41,351 nucleotides of DNA, from positions 1-41,351 of the forward strand of contig JYFJ02003455.1 in NCBI GenBank assembly GCA_000934665.2, in the 5' to 3' direction. Under the pieces are notes generated by a model that saw only the letters and a program-made list of their open reading frames with translations, ran no database searches and was not told where the DNA came from. The DNA is from Catajapyx aquilonaris (Eukaryota). The position numbers and the translations under genes were made by a program. Positions 2,785-40,771 of the stretch are shown here, in pieces; the first letter of the stretch is position 1; every line of letters starts with the position of its first letter.

Positions 2785-3848
2785 TCATATCCGGTAACGA
2801 GGGTTCTTCATCGCCTCCTGCTGACCGCAATCGAATATGTCAGCGTGGCAAAAGTAGAAGATCTGGTAGGAGATGTCCCATATGGCCTTCAACTTGGTAC
2901 TGAAATTGGGGGGAAGCTGTTCAGATGAGCCATAGAGATTCTAACGCTGAATCACTATTAAATTAATTTTAAAAGTCGAACAAAAAACTAACCCGATGGA
3001 ACGGATTGCAACTTCCTGATCTGAGTCTTCGGTCCACACCTCGATCCTGTTGCCCCAAGCCCTGCAACCCGCGACGGCCCCAGTCACCTGGACGCCGTAC
3101 AACTGGAAACCCGAACCGACGATGCACAACAGCTGCAACATGAAATATTCCCCATGAATTTCCGTCGAATTCTCGCCAAAAACGCTGACTTACAGTCTGC
3201 ATCCACTTGTCCCTGATCATGTCCCGAGGGGCGTTCTTCCCCAGCGGGATCCTAAAGTGACCTCCGTACTTGTTATCGTCTGACTCCCAAATAGGCTTGA
3301 CTCCGTCTCTGAAGCAAGCGTAGTCGTACCCCCAGTAGTTCAGTGGACCAGGGTCATCTGTATCCTCCCACACCCTATGGGTGGTGTACCATTGTTAACA
3401 ATTGTTAACCGGCTTTGGTTCATCGAGGTGCTTACCGTATGAAGGCAGGAAGAGACTTCAGGAGTATCAGGGGAGCTAGTTTGTGTCCCCACCTCTTCCT
3501 CTTCTGTGAGTAGGTACGGATGACCCACATGTTCCACCCGGCACCCAGGAGAGGCATGGCCCCCTGAAGCTCATCTGGAGGGAGATACCGGTTCACAGTA
3601 GGCAGCGGATCTCCGTACATGTAGTACATCACTGGTTCGATAGGTGTCTGGACACTCTGGTTGTATTCCCTAGGGTAGAAGCAGGGTGCCAGGGCGGACA
3701 ACTCCACTTTTGAACTAGTTGGTGCGTCACCTCCTCCGACGTCCATGTGTTCCTCTGGTGGTACCACAGTCTCCTTCTCTTCGATGGTAACGTCCCCACT
3801 GCCGTCTCCAAGCTCCATTCCAATCTCAAGGGTCGAGGCACCCTCCAT
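2785..3848 (-). CDS. eIF4E: Divergent class I-derived eIF4E paralog with N-terminal extension. Exons 3848-3436, 3374-3194, 3132-2993, 2899-2785; 282 aa
   Basis: Three GT-AG introns (3435-3375 GTAAG..CATAG, 61 nt; 3193-3133 GTAAGT..TGCAG, 61 nt; 2992-2900 GTTAGT..TTTCAG, 93 nt) join into one open 849-nt frame ending in TGA. The protein aligns by eye to eIF4E: PLLGAGWNMW~HPLQNRWALW; GYDYACFRDGVKPIWESDDNKYGG~GCDYSLFKDGIEPMWEDEKNKRGG; KWMQTLLCIVG~FWLETLLCLIG; VTGAVAGCRAWGNRIEVWT~VCGAVVNVRAKGDKIAIWT; YFCHAD~YQSHAD. An acceptor-like CTCTCAG just upstream of the ATG suggests a further 5' exon. Confidence 0.92.

Positions 3849-17009: not shown

Positions 17010-17079
<70 letters not shown>
17010..17079. 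repeat. (AAT)n microsatellite forming the tail of the adjacent SINE
   Basis: More than 20 perfect AAT units. Confidence 0.95.
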
Positions 17080-20878: not shown

Positions 20879-21660
20879 TAAAGTAGACTTGTGTGGATAG
20901 AGTGAACCCGGATAACCGGAAGTGGTGGATCACCGGATTGCCCATGAAACCTATTTAGGTCACGCTTAATCCGAATCCGAAAACCGTTTATCTCTATCGC
21001 TTGCGGTTTAGGCCCTGATACCTGTCCACAGACGGACAGACAGAGCCGTTCTATAAGTATTTTTTGTCGATGAGAAAAAGTCTAAAACAAGGGGTCGAAT
21101 TTTCGAAATTTTGACCCCTTGTATTTTTCTGCCATGTCCCTTTTTGGACTCTCTTGCAGAGACCAGAAACTCCAGATGCCAAGGCGCACTGTGCGGAGGC
21201 TGCTCAATGTGCATGTAATACCCTGTATTATTACTTTGTAATTTGGCCCGGGTGTAAATCACGTAGGTGGACGTTGGCACAAGTCCACGTACCAGAGTAG
21301 ATGCTGCTCCGCAATTAACTGGAGTAACTTTGATTAATCTTTCGTAGACTTGGTTCGCAGCGTGAAGGTTAGGTCGTTACGTTTATAGTGAGATTTATAA
21401 TAAAGCGGGTCGTCTGACAATTGGCCTATTTCACGCCCCTGTTTTAAAATGGTCTCAAGTTCATTTTATCCTAGATTTTAAACATTGTGTCTATGTCGTC
21501 AGCGTACAAGTGAAACACACTTGACATTGGAAGTCAAATTTCGGTTCGGAATTAAGTGCTATGTAGCATTTCAAATACCATATCGCTAGTTCTAAATATT
21601 CATAAGGAGCCAGGAAGCCAGCATCTTCTGTCTTCACTAGCATGTAAGCAAGTACAAGGT

Positions 21661-22308
21661 TGGGAGGCATGGTGGTCTGATGGTTACGCCATTGGCCAGC
21701 CAAGCGGGAGGCCGGGGTTCAAATCCCGTCCCGGTCACCTCTGCTTGCCCGGGTCTTTTTCCGCTTTTCACCCGACATGCCGGGGCAGAATTGCACTCCC
21801 TACTCTGCCCTGGGCCAGGAGAAACGGTCTGGTGTATTTCAGAAAGTCAGAAATGACTATAAATTACAGCGCCCTCCCTTGGGAACCTCCCCTTCACCCT
21901 TAAAGGAAGGGTTCAGTGATTTTGCATGTTGAGCCCCAAAAATCAAACACGACTCCCTGATTTGAAATATCTGATCCGTTTTGTTGGCAAATGCACCATA
22001 AGCGTAAAATTTCAAGTCAAAGTTGATTTTAAAAAAAAAAATCAGCGCCGAACACGGCTTCCCTCTAGCCACAAGAGTGGAAGCTTCGATGCAGCGCACT
22101 GGTGGCAGGTTACCGGAATTTCCGCGGGAGGCGCTGGCTGTACGCTTACCGTATCGAATACAGTAGCGGATATGGACTTTCACCTAACGGAATTTGTTTA
22201 CGCGGCGTCAGATTCCAAAACTGACCACATTTTTGGAATCAGGGAGTCTTCCTTGATCTCTGAAGCCCAACATACAAAATCACTGAACCCTTCCTTTAAA
22301 AGGGCTAA
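21661..22308 (+). mobile_element. tRNA-derived SINE, family C, interrupted at its 3' end by a MITE
   Basis: A-box TGGTCTGATGG, B-box GGTTCAAATCC; TSD AAGTACAAGGT at 21650-21660 and 22309-22319. Confidence 0.85.
21904..22295. mobile_element. TTAA-target MITE (Kolobok-like AG termini)
   Basis: TTAA|AGGAAGGGTTCAGTGATTTTG ... CAAAATCACTGAACCCTTCCT|TTAA; imperfect IR extends further inward. Confidence 0.85.
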
Positions 22309-22964: not shown

Positions 22965-23554
22965 CATGGTGTTTCAACTTTTTTGTCCGAACATTTATCG
23001 GATAACTGCACGTAGCTGCTACTTTTTTGTTACCCCGTGATAGGGCCAGAGGCCCTCTTAGAGGGGAAGGGGAAGTTCCCAAGGGAGGGCGCTGTGCGGT
23101 AGTCATTTCTGACATTCTTTAAACACCAGGTCTTTTCTCCTGGCCCCGGGCAGAGAAGAGAGTGCAATTCTGCCCCGGCATGTCGGGTGAAAAGCGGAAA
23201 AAGACCCAGCCAAGCAGAGGAGACGGGGACAGGATTTGAACCCCGGCCTCCCTCTTGGCTGGCCAGTGGCGTAACCACTAGACCACCATGCCTCCCTACG
23301 TAGCTGCTACTTTGTAAGCAGTGACTTGCAAACGGTGATTTTTCGGAGGGACGGGGAATATTCCCTGCGAATCGTAGATTGAAGTGGCACACCCGCTGAA
23401 AATTGAGGGTCACACATGCCATGGGATGTGTGACCCTCTTTTTCCCCATTCCCCATTCATCCAACAAATCACCGGTTGCAAGTCACTGCTTACCAAGTAG
23501 CAGCTACATGCAATTTTCTAATAACTGTTCGGACAAAAAAGTTGAAACACACTG
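22965..23554. mobile_element. Tc1/mariner-type MITE carrying a SINE
   Basis: TIR GTGTTTCAACTTTTTTGTCCGAACA, TA flanks, long imperfect palindrome. Confidence 0.85.
23026..23297 (-). mobile_element. tRNA-derived SINE, family C
   Basis: Full head and tail; 16-bp TSD ACGTAGCTGCTACTTT. Confidence 0.92.
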
Positions 23555-24405: not shown

Positions 24406-24613
24406 TACCTGCCTTCAATAAGCTGTGGGACCGGAAGTAGTTGTCTTTACTGTAACTGTGGGGACTTTTCACTCACCTGTGGGGACATTTTCCCCACTTG
24501 CGGGGACGTTTACGGTCCCCACAAGAAAATTGCGGATTTGCTTTTGCAGCAGTGGGGACAAGTCCCCACTATTTCCAGTTGCAGGGTTTTAGAAAAGTCA
24601 ATTTTTCTCAGCC

Positions 24614-24699
24614 TAGGTTACGTAGGGTAGGGTAGGGTAGGTTAGGGTAGGTTAGGATAGGTTAGGATAGGTTAGGATATGTTAGGTTAGGTTAGGTTA
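24614..24699 (+). repeat. Degenerate (TTAGG)n-like array
   Basis: Mixed TTAGG/GTAGG/ATAGG pentamers, preceded by GTGGGGAC repeats at 24457-24569. Confidence 0.85.
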
Positions 24700-34287: not shown

Positions 34288-34906
34288 TTTTTTTAAAAAT
34301 ATGTTTTTAAATACCCCGTGATAGGGAGATGAAGTGGCGTCGCGGTAACGCGTGCGCCCACGGATATGAAGGTCCCGGGTTCAATCCCCACCCGGGGTTC
34401 CCACCTTTACCCGTGCAGAGTTGGGCCATCTCTGGCTTCATTTCGGGTGGCAATTTCCGACAGACTAAGCCATCCGGGGGAGTTCACAAAATGACTATTA
34501 GAGACATTGCACTTGCACTTTGCACATCCCCTCCCACCCACCCTTGGAGTACACTAATTAAGATTCTTCTTAAACTCGCTCCAAAAACAAATCCTAACGG
34601 TGGTAACCCACCCCCCCTAAGGAGTAGTATAACTCCCCCGTGGGGTAATTTTAAAAAACGTGATAGGGCGGAAGGGGGAGGTTCCCAAGGGAGGACACTG
34701 TAATTATAGTCATTTCTGACTTTCTGAAATACACCAGACCTTTTCTCCTGGCCCTGGGCAGAGTGGGGAGTGCATTTCTGCCCTGCATGTCGGATGAAAA
34801 GCGGAAAAAGACCTGGCCAGGCAGAGGTAACGAGGATGGGATTTGAACCCTGGCCTCCCGCTTGGCTGGCCAGTGGCGTAACCACCAGACCACCATGCCT
34901 CCCCGA
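34288..34906 (-). mobile_element. SINE family C, split by a family D insertion
   Basis: TSD GTTTCGATGA at 34278-34287 and 34907-34916. Confidence 0.85.
34325..34658 (+). mobile_element. tRNA-derived SINE, family D
   Basis: Head with B-box GGTTCAATCC; duplicated CGTGATAG(GG) target. Confidence 0.88.
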
Positions 34907-39828: not shown

Positions 39829-40771
39829 TAGAGATGGGCAGTATTTAAATACAAATGTATTTAAATACGTATTGAAATACTTTTTGGCATTGAGAGATGT
39901 ATATATATATATATATATATATAACTATATTGGTTCTCCTGTATTTAAATACTGTATTTCAATACATTTCTGTGCATTTAAATACTGTATTTCAATACAT
40001 TTCTGTGCATTTAAATACTGTATTTCAATACATTTCTGTGTATTTAAATACTGTATTTCAATACATTTCTGTGTATTTAAATACTGTATTTAAATACATT
40101 TCAGTCTATTTAAATACTGTATCTCAATACATTTCTGTCTATTTAAATACTGTATTTCAATACATTTCTGTGTATTTAAATACGGTATTTCAATACATTT
40201 CTGAGTGAGTATTTAAATACAGAAGGATTTAAATACATATCGTAAATACATTCCATAACTCCGTTTTAATTTATATTTGCATAATTCTTAATTCTGAAAC
40301 CTAATGAAAGAAAAGCAGCCAATTAGCAGCTTTTTCTCCTAGGCAGCTTGCAGCATGATAATCATAGGTGGAGGAGACCAATTGGAAAGTATGGAGTTGG
40401 TGAAGGGGAAAACCCTCAAGTAGCCTACTGGGAAAATATTTGGGTGTGTCATGGGTTATGGGTCTGTTATGTTTTCTTATTTTTATCCAAAGAATGATGG
40501 TAAGAAATTAGTTGCACATTAACAAAAACATGGATTTGAAATGTATTTAGTATCTAATTACATTTTTATGCAGTAGATAGTATTTAGCATTTAATTACAT
40601 TTTATGCAGTAGATAGTATTTAGCATTTAATTACATTTTTATCCAGTAGATAGTATTTAGCACTTAATTACATTTTTATGCAGTAGATAGTATTTAGCAT
40701 TTAATTACATTTTTATGCAGTAGATAGTATTTAGTATTTAATTACGTCCAAGTATTTAGTGCCCATCACTG
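39829..40771. mobile_element. hAT-like non-autonomous element with subterminal minisatellites
   Basis: TIR (T/C)AG(A/T)GATGGGCA; about 8 x 33-bp repeats at 39938-40205 and about 5 x 36-37-bp repeats at 40544-40745; 8-bp TSD not clean. Confidence 0.75.

Follow-up and report, generated by a model that had tools for sequence, protein, structure and literature searches.

In the textbook closed loop, eIF4E on the cap and PABP on the tail are held together by the scaffold eIF4G. Trypanosomatid eIF4E3 and eIF4E4 follow a different plan, in which an eIF4E core sits behind a long N-terminal extension with a PAM2-type motif, the chain runs cap-eIF4E-PABP-poly(A), and binding of PABP has been measured (PMC6379680, PMC11754739). 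Leishmania eIF4E4 binds PABP1 via the PAM2 motif in its N-terminal extension and, with a dorsal face that still functions, also holds eIF4G3 tightly (PMC6379680). The arrangement has been described as unique (PMC6379680), and in the literature surveyed PAM2-bearing eIF4Es appeared only in trypanosomatids (PMC6379680, PMC11754739). These trypanosomatid proteins are the nearest precedent for the gene described here, which is predicted to encode an eIF4E-like protein of 282 residues and lies in the 41,351-nt stretch of Catajapyx aquilonaris DNA that was analyzed (the window).

LARP1 carries a PAM2 motif, represses translation by excluding eIF4F, and is a functional analogue of the predicted protein. 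A single LARP1 chain is reported to bind the cap and to act in a PABPC1-dependent manner (PMC8034618, PMC7797073). Unlike the gene described here, LARP1 belongs to an unrelated fold and family, in which the DM15 region binds the cap, and has a specificity for 5'TOP mRNAs. Within the eIF4E family, the predicted protein resembles 4EHP/eIF4E2 (Class II) and other cap competitors that do not bind eIF4G, in that it would also be a cap binder that does not assemble eIF4F and is probably repressive. In sequence, Class II members have Tyr, Phe, or Leu at the W43 position and Tyr or Phe at the W56 position, and keep W73 (PMC1260017), whereas the corresponding residues here are Trp, Trp, and Ile.

The gene shares with trypanosomatid eIF4E3 and eIF4E4 the order of its parts, an eIF4E core behind a long extension with a PAM2-like motif. 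In contrast to the trypanosomatid genes, it has spliceosomal introns, a Class-I-like core, and Ile at the W73 equivalent, and its binding to PABP is predicted rather than measured. A homologous extension and retained eIF4G binding would place a protein in the trypanosomatid type; the extension here is without relatives and W73 is lost. Since the extension has no detectable homology to any protein, the likeness is convergent at most and, judged from sequence, is one of architecture and not of descent. Relative to trypanosomatid eIF4E3 and eIF4E4, the predicted protein is of separate ancestry and, in addition, has lost W73.

Several features of canonical Class I eIF4E (human and mouse eIF4E-1, as in 1ipb and 1ej1) are present. 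The predicted protein has Trp at the W43, W46, W56, W102, W130, and W166 equivalents, keeps E103 and R157, and its gene has two intron positions in common with a Class-I-type gene. It departs from canonical Class I members in having SLPAFI for (S/T)VxxFW, His, Phe, and Trp at the equivalents of R112, W113, and K159, an extension of ∼97 residues with a PAM2-like motif, and ends of the core so diverged that neither is recognized when searched singly.

Gene model and putative cap-binding core

The gene spans 3848..2785 of the minus strand and consists of four exons and three introns in a single open frame. Its coding sequence of 849 nt comprises 282 codons and a TGA stop, and the start ATG at 3848..3846 has A at −3 and G at +4. 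Its features are as follows, in the direction of transcription.

3436..3848, minus strand: exon 1, residues 1–137 and two bases of codon 138; it carries an N-terminal extension up to about residue 97, then the beginning of the eIF4E fold
3672..3701, minus strand: PAM2-like motif LSALAPCFYP, residues 50–59, by match to the consensus
3536..3525, minus strand: W105 and W108, equivalents of W43 and W46, by anchored profile alignment
3489..3491, minus strand: W120, at the position of W56, which stacks on the cap; placed only by the anchored profile alignment
3438..3455, minus strand: SLPAFI, residues 132–137, which replaces the (S/T)VxxFW docking motif, by profile alignment
3375..3435, minus strand: intron 1, 61 nt, GTAAGC..ATAG, phase 2, in the codon following the W73 equivalent
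3194..3374, minus strand: exon 2, residues 138–198
3289..3284, minus strand: W167 and E168 in exon 2, equivalents of W102 and E103, by phmmer against 1ipb_A
3133..3193, minus strand: intron 2, 61 nt, GTAAGT..GCAG, phase 0
2993..3132, minus strand: exon 3, residues 199–244 and two bases of codon 245
3063..3061, minus strand: R222, equivalent of R157, by phmmer against 1ipb_A
3048..3046, minus strand: R227, equivalent of K162 (as Arg), by phmmer against 1ipb_A
3036..3034, minus strand: W231, equivalent of W166, by phmmer against 1ipb_A
2900..2992, minus strand: intron 3, 93 nt, GTTAGT, then a pyrimidine tract, then TTCAG, phase 2
2785..2899, minus strand: exon 4, residues 245–282, with the TGA stop at 2787..2785
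2847..2845, minus strand: H263 in exon 4, likely equivalent of the core-bordering H200

The intact spliced reading frame of 282 codons proposed in a first-pass annotation of the locus is borne out. All three introns are GT..AG and the frame is kept throughout. The spliced protein scores 60.3 bits (aligned residues 101–255) against a profile built from 120 eIF4E-family proteins, which are mostly Class II (4EHP-type) by their listed source names, and the alignment crosses all three exon junctions, none of which opens a gap. Against this profile, the separate scores of exons 2 and 3 total 41.2 bits; the score rises by 8.6 bits when the end of exon 1 is attached to exon 2 and by 3.4 bits when exon 4 is attached to exon 3. 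Exon 2 residues 15–60 align without gaps to residues 88–133 of human eIF4E (1ipb_A) and exon 3 residues 1–43 to residues 134–176 (phmmer), so the second junction joins adjacent residues and nothing is missing between them. For intron 3, the 282-residue model is the best of five. The four alternatives (read-through, two models with weak donors, and read-through of a form lacking 102 nt) were rejected on their lower scores of 55.7–56.5 bits, and six other combinations of donor and acceptor for this last intron yield proteins of 247–297 residues, none of 282.

Base composition follows the gene model. GC content is 49–60% in exons, 34–44% in introns, and 42% in the flanks, and periodicity by codon position is strong (GC3 of 0.67 versus GC2 of 0.43). 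Introns 1 and 2 match, in codon and phase, the two comparable introns (2/2) of an unrelated Class-I-type eIF4E gene on a metagenome contig (L001). One shared intron interrupts, in phase 2, the codon that follows the W73 position, and the other lies, in phase 0, three residues beyond the W130 position. This sharing argues for duplication of a gene that already had introns, rather than for retroposition.

The gene belongs to the eIF4E family, as recognized by its predicted translation. Pfam IF4E (PF01652) matches the translations of two of the four exons, exon 2 with 32.2 bits (E = 1.1e-7; curated cut-off of 28.7) and exon 3 with 27.8 bits (E = 2.4e-6), or 32.7 bits when exon 3 is read as a stop-to-stop frame. 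Exon 2 thus exceeds the Pfam cut-off, and this match and the score of the spliced protein against the family profile uphold the assignment made in the first-pass annotation. Exons 1 and 4, searched singly, have no match in Pfam, and the C-terminal 46 residues of exon 1 and exon 4, searched singly against the PDB, return nothing relevant. The top matches in the PDB are vertebrate eIF4E-1 proteins, with 34.6 bits for exon 2 and 28.2 bits for exon 3. Nematode and fly eIF4Es and human 4EHP rank below eIF4E-1, with 4EHP chains reaching 26.5 bits for exon 2.

Residues of the cap pocket are largely retained. Alignment to human eIF4E by phmmer confirms the previously claimed equivalents of W102, E103, R157, K162 (as Arg), and W166, and also aligns W195 with W130. 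Retention of W56, which had likewise been claimed, is seen as W120 in the anchored profile alignment only and is less secure than that of the other cap residues. Searched alone against the eIF4E profile, the eIF4E-like end of exon 1, which contains W120 and SLPAFI, reaches −2 bits, compared with 6.2 bits for the best of 1,000 shuffles; because this end is not significant alone, assignments of the W56 and W73 positions hang on the anchored alignment to a Class II profile. Class I eIF4Es are distinguished by Trp at the positions of both W43 and W56 (Joshi et al. 2005, PMC1260017), and by this profile alignment both are present, as W105 and W120. Three positions of the core are altered relative to human eIF4E (phmmer), with H177 at R112, F178 at W113, and W224 at K159, and these substitutions could weaken cap binding.

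Dorsal surface and N-terminal extension

The docking motif of eIF4E for eIF4G and 4E-BPs is (S/T)VxxFW, which includes V69 and W73 (PMC1260017). A nonaromatic residue at W73 disrupts binding of both eIF4G and 4E-BPs, and W73 is kept by all but one member of the three nonprotist classes (PMC1260017). In the predicted protein, SLPAFI stands in place of the Class I docking motif, and profile alignment places L133 at V69 and I137 at W73. The adjoining dorsal contacts are also changed, L131 to M196 and E132 to Q197. A remodeled dorsal surface, as had been proposed, is thus evident in the sequence itself. W140, which lies three residues past I137 on the same helix face, might partly substitute for W73. 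The 282-residue protein contains no YxxxxL-phi eIF4E-binding motif of its own.

The extension of ∼97 residues ahead of the eIF4E core is rich in Pro, Glu, and Gly (12, 12, and 10, respectively, in the first 100 residues). Its sequence has no recognizable relatives. A HMMER scan of 1.84 billion representative sequences with the 137 residues of exon 1 found no true relative; the two hits are repeat-like proteins matched in 5–7 stretches and were rejected as spurious. In a word-indexed search among longer proteins, none of the 282 candidates for exon 1 is related. Against the PDB, exon 1 retrieves only a chitinase-like lectin (E = 0.49), which was also rejected.

Within the extension, LSALAPCFYP resembles the PAM2 consensus LNxxAxEFxP (PMC7356810). 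Leu and Phe of PAM2 occupy the two hydrophobic pockets of the MLLE domain, and a residue bulkier than Ala7 would clash (PMC7356810). The string is identical to the consensus at four of its six specified positions (Leu3, Ala7, Phe10, and Pro12) and deviates at two (Asn4 to Ser and Glu9 to Cys). The pattern L[NS]xxAxxFxP arises by chance in 0.0165% (1.65e-4) of 200,000 shuffles of the 282-residue protein, and its single match in the six-frame translation of the window (82,698 residues) is LSALAPCFYP itself. With the Pfam PAM2 model (PF07145), no family is reported at E ≤ 10 for residues 40–70 or for the whole of exon 1, which is a weak negative because HMMER filters discard most weak matches. 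The PAM2-like motif put forward in the first-pass annotation is a partial match to the consensus, improbable by chance and unique in the window, and is not a match to the Pfam profile.

Variation, proposed role, and rival explanations

The sequencing runs listed as containing the locus are four DNA runs from one sample, with no RNA run among them, and a fifth run under the same species label has nothing that aligns to this stretch. Three of the four, aligned at 80% likeness, yielded 19 contigs each, some of which differ from the window. Variants as listed cover 40 of 68 substitution rows and 12 of 18 indel rows, with alleles and paralogues pooled, and three variant contigs are listed in full (2708–2857, 3058–3225, and 3595–3788). 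Across these three, coding sequence has 10 substitutions and no indels in 374 nt, and noncoding sequence has nine substitutions and nine indel events in 138 nt; the difference between coding and noncoding is significant for indels (Fisher, p = 6e-6) and marginal for substitutions (p = 0.06). Twelve of the 26 listed exonic differences are synonymous and 14 nonsynonymous, which is an excess of synonymous changes relative to the 22% expected from the share of synonymous sites (binomial p = 0.005) and corresponds, for these listed differences, to a crude pN/pS of 0.33. This ratio, taken from partial DNA-variant data, speaks against a neutrally decaying copy.

In the variant contig that covers codons 21–85, the PAM2-like motif has two synonymous changes (Y58 and P59) and no replacements, S46 just before the motif is also changed synonymously, and residues 64–73 carry four replacements. 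Conservation of the motif is read from this one contig. At place 3260, up to four contigs have a letter other than the reference, in one sample. Similarity of one variant form to the window stops at 3196, two bases from the boundary between exon 2 and intron 2. Together, the variant forms suggest a small family in which the exons are conserved and the introns have diverged. One DNA variant lacks 102 nt across part of intron 3 and exon 4, and a variant of 406 nt has 37 differences and seven gap letters, with part of its differences itemized.

We suggest that the gene is a lineage-specific and selectively maintained Class-I-type eIF4E paralogue that may bridge the cap to the PABP-coated tail and may store, protect, or repress the mRNAs that it holds; we give this reading a probability of roughly one in three. 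It would have originated by duplication, at the level of DNA, of an intron-bearing Class-I-type eIF4E gene. The cap would be clamped between W120 and W167, with m7G read by E168 and W231 and the phosphates held by R222 and R227. The dorsal face would no longer accept the YxxxxL-phi helix of eIF4G or 4E-BPs. The MLLE domain of cytoplasmic PABP would receive L50, A54, and F57 of the extension, and a single chain would then hold both the cap and the PABP-coated tail. The 43S complex would not be recruited in the absence of eIF4G, and it follows that protection, storage, or repression is the likeliest outcome and not activation. Bound mRNAs would be protected, stored, or repressed in competition with canonical eIF4E.

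A single-chain bridge from cap to poly(A) had been the central proposal of the first-pass annotation. Sequence features favor it (the residues of the pocket, Ile in place of W73, and the match to PAM2), and from these features we predict that the protein binds the cap and PABP and no longer binds eIF4G. Its further suggestion, a role in the germline, gained no support. A bypass of eIF4G, also proposed there, would go further than the precedent in Leishmania, whose eIF4E4 retains its binding to eIF4G3 (PMC6379680). A broader claim, that a eukaryote with ordinary spliceosomal introns, possibly an invertebrate animal, independently evolved the trypanosomatid solution, in which a small Class-I-derived eIF4E family gained a PAM2 grip on PABP through a new N-terminal extension, abandoned docking of eIF4G and 4E-BPs, and became an eIF4G-free clamp from cap to tail that stores or silences mRNAs, is slightly less probable than this reading of the gene.

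Equally weighted with the cap-to-PABP bridge is the explanation that the gene encodes a functional but divergent eIF4E paralogue whose PAM2-like string arose by chance or is used by some other partner, with no direct contact to PABP. Such a protein could be a tissue- or stage-specific cap binder or a competitor with its own partners, as are 4EHP and the extra eIF4Es of Drosophila, and families of eIF4E do expand and diversify (PMC1260017, PMC3382400). The gene model, the constraint, and the cap residues fit this explanation equally. The motif, moreover, was spotted post hoc in a 97-residue extension that has no detectable relatives, the Pfam PAM2 model gives it no score, and two consensus positions differ. 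An inert string is harder to reconcile with the chance rate of 1.65e-4 and with uniqueness of the motif among the 82,698 six-frame residues of the window. The protein that carries the motif is, moreover, a translation factor, and PABP makes functional sense as its partner; the sole variant contig over it has synonymous changes there and replacements just downstream. Were the same residues instead a prolyl-hydroxylation degron of the HIF-alpha type, the cap-binding protein would be subject to oxygen-dependent turnover and would not dock to PABP. LSALAP does fit the LxxLAP motif (defined in PMC3135610), which is far less specific, occurring in 0.58% of shuffles versus 0.0165% for the PAM2 pattern, and leaves Phe and Pro at PAM2 positions 10 and 12 unexplained. 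A link between eIF4E and a prolyl hydroxylase was not found in the literature surveyed, and we consider the degron very improbable.

A further alternative is that the locus represents a recent or degenerating copy in a multicopy family, unexpressed or functionless, with a frame that is open for lack of time. The presence of several forms of the exon 2 core in one sample, with up to four contigs carrying a nonreference letter, is as expected of such a family, as is failure to find an orthologue in large protein collections. Residues that are usually conserved are altered (the W73, W113, and R112 equivalents), one DNA variant lacks 102 nt over part of intron 3 and exon 4, and a frameshift is possible in variant rows beyond those listed. 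Decay is difficult to square, however, with a crude pN/pS of 0.33 and the synonymous excess (p = 0.005) among the listed differences, or with the location of all nine indel events in noncoding sequence of the fully listed contigs (p = 6e-6). The variant whose similarity ends two nucleotides inside exon 2 looks as if exons are conserved and introns diverged, GT..AG boundaries and frame are intact at all three introns, and GC periodicity by codon position is strong. On balance, a decaying copy seems unlikely.

If the cap-to-PABP bridge is real, the gene would be a second, independent PABP-docking eIF4E, implying that the wiring between cap and tail can evolve repeatedly. The effects of eIF4G-free bridging between cap and PABP on stability, storage, and repression would become open to direct test, and if the protein has also lost the W73 docking tryptophan, it would be a natural tool to separate end-to-end bridging of mRNAs from recruitment of ribosomes. 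Should the motif turn out to have no function, the gene would remain a rare natural case of a W73-less Class-I-like eIF4E.

Relatives and surroundings

Searches for an orthologue in protein collections, metagenome contigs, and viral contigs found none. In the word-indexed search among longer proteins, exon 2 has no candidate that shares three five-residue words, which is weak evidence. Among metagenome contigs, nine of 153 pattern matches for exon 2 encode relatives, all distant. Three of four pattern matches in viral contigs encode relatives; since these are only giant-virus eIF4Es, a viral origin of the gene gets no support.

The gene is single in the window. No second copy is detected by tblastn, and none of the repeats within the window overlaps the gene. 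A degenerate TTAGG/TTAGGG-like array in the window and the 61-nt length of two introns hint at an invertebrate, perhaps an arthropod, but this was rejected as evidence of taxon. When the 91 frames of at least 75 residues in the window were compared with Pfam, two matched IF4E, both of them exons of this gene. Four others have matches below the cut-off (TSKS, Zn_ribbon_4, Cnl2_NKP2, and Flp_Fap) and 85 have no match. Searches for Rfam families and tRNAs in the window found none.

Variant forms of the eIF4E-like gene in the sequenced sample

The eIF4E-like gene with a PAM2-like motif seems, on sequence comparison, to be represented by several related copies in the sample, which may be paralogues and/or alleles. 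Across the exon-2 core (window 3196-3360), non-reference letters, such as that at 3260, occur in up to four contigs per run in three DNA sequencing runs from one sample (X1-X3). Contigs of these runs also include one variant form whose likeness to the window stops at 3196, two bases short of the exon/intron boundary.

Another form differs at the junction of intron 3 and exon 4. In one DNA contig per run (X1-X3), position 2864 is joined to 2967 and the 102 nt between them (2865-2966), made up of a 3' portion of intron 3 plus 35 nt at the start of exon 4, are apparently absent. The gap does not have intron-like ends. Read-through of intron 3 would keep this form in frame and yield a protein of 279 aa.

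Intron positions shared with a metagenomic eIF4E gene

In the window gene, introns 1 and 2 have the same position and phase as two introns of a Class-I-type eIF4E gene from a plant-associated metagenome. This second gene is partial and occupies positions 216-760 of a short AT-rich contig (L001).

Gene content and repeats of the window

Outside 2785-3848, window 1-41351 has 89 other frames of 75 aa or longer, none with a recognisable protein domain. The window seems to be about 41 kb of repeat-bearing DNA with the eIF4E-like gene as its lone gene, as judged from frames of this length, a scan that short-exon genes would escape. The window contains seven N letters and the following repeats.

Repeats in the window
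21659-21862, 23123-23299 and 34704-34903, both orientations: interspersed repeat of ~120-200 nt, present three times, the copies 89-95% alike
24456-24511: 21-nt repeat, beside the array in the next line
24614-24699: degenerate TTAGG / TAGGG-type array, interstitial, resembling telomere repeat
39874-40269 and 40543-40745: pair of AT-rich tandem arrays, one with 8-9 copies of a 33-nt unit, the other with 5.5 copies of a 37-nt unit
17010-17079: perfect (AAT)23

The interspersed repeat may be a SINE-like element; tRNA and Rfam searches returned no match for it. Long frames running through its three copies have a peptide in common.
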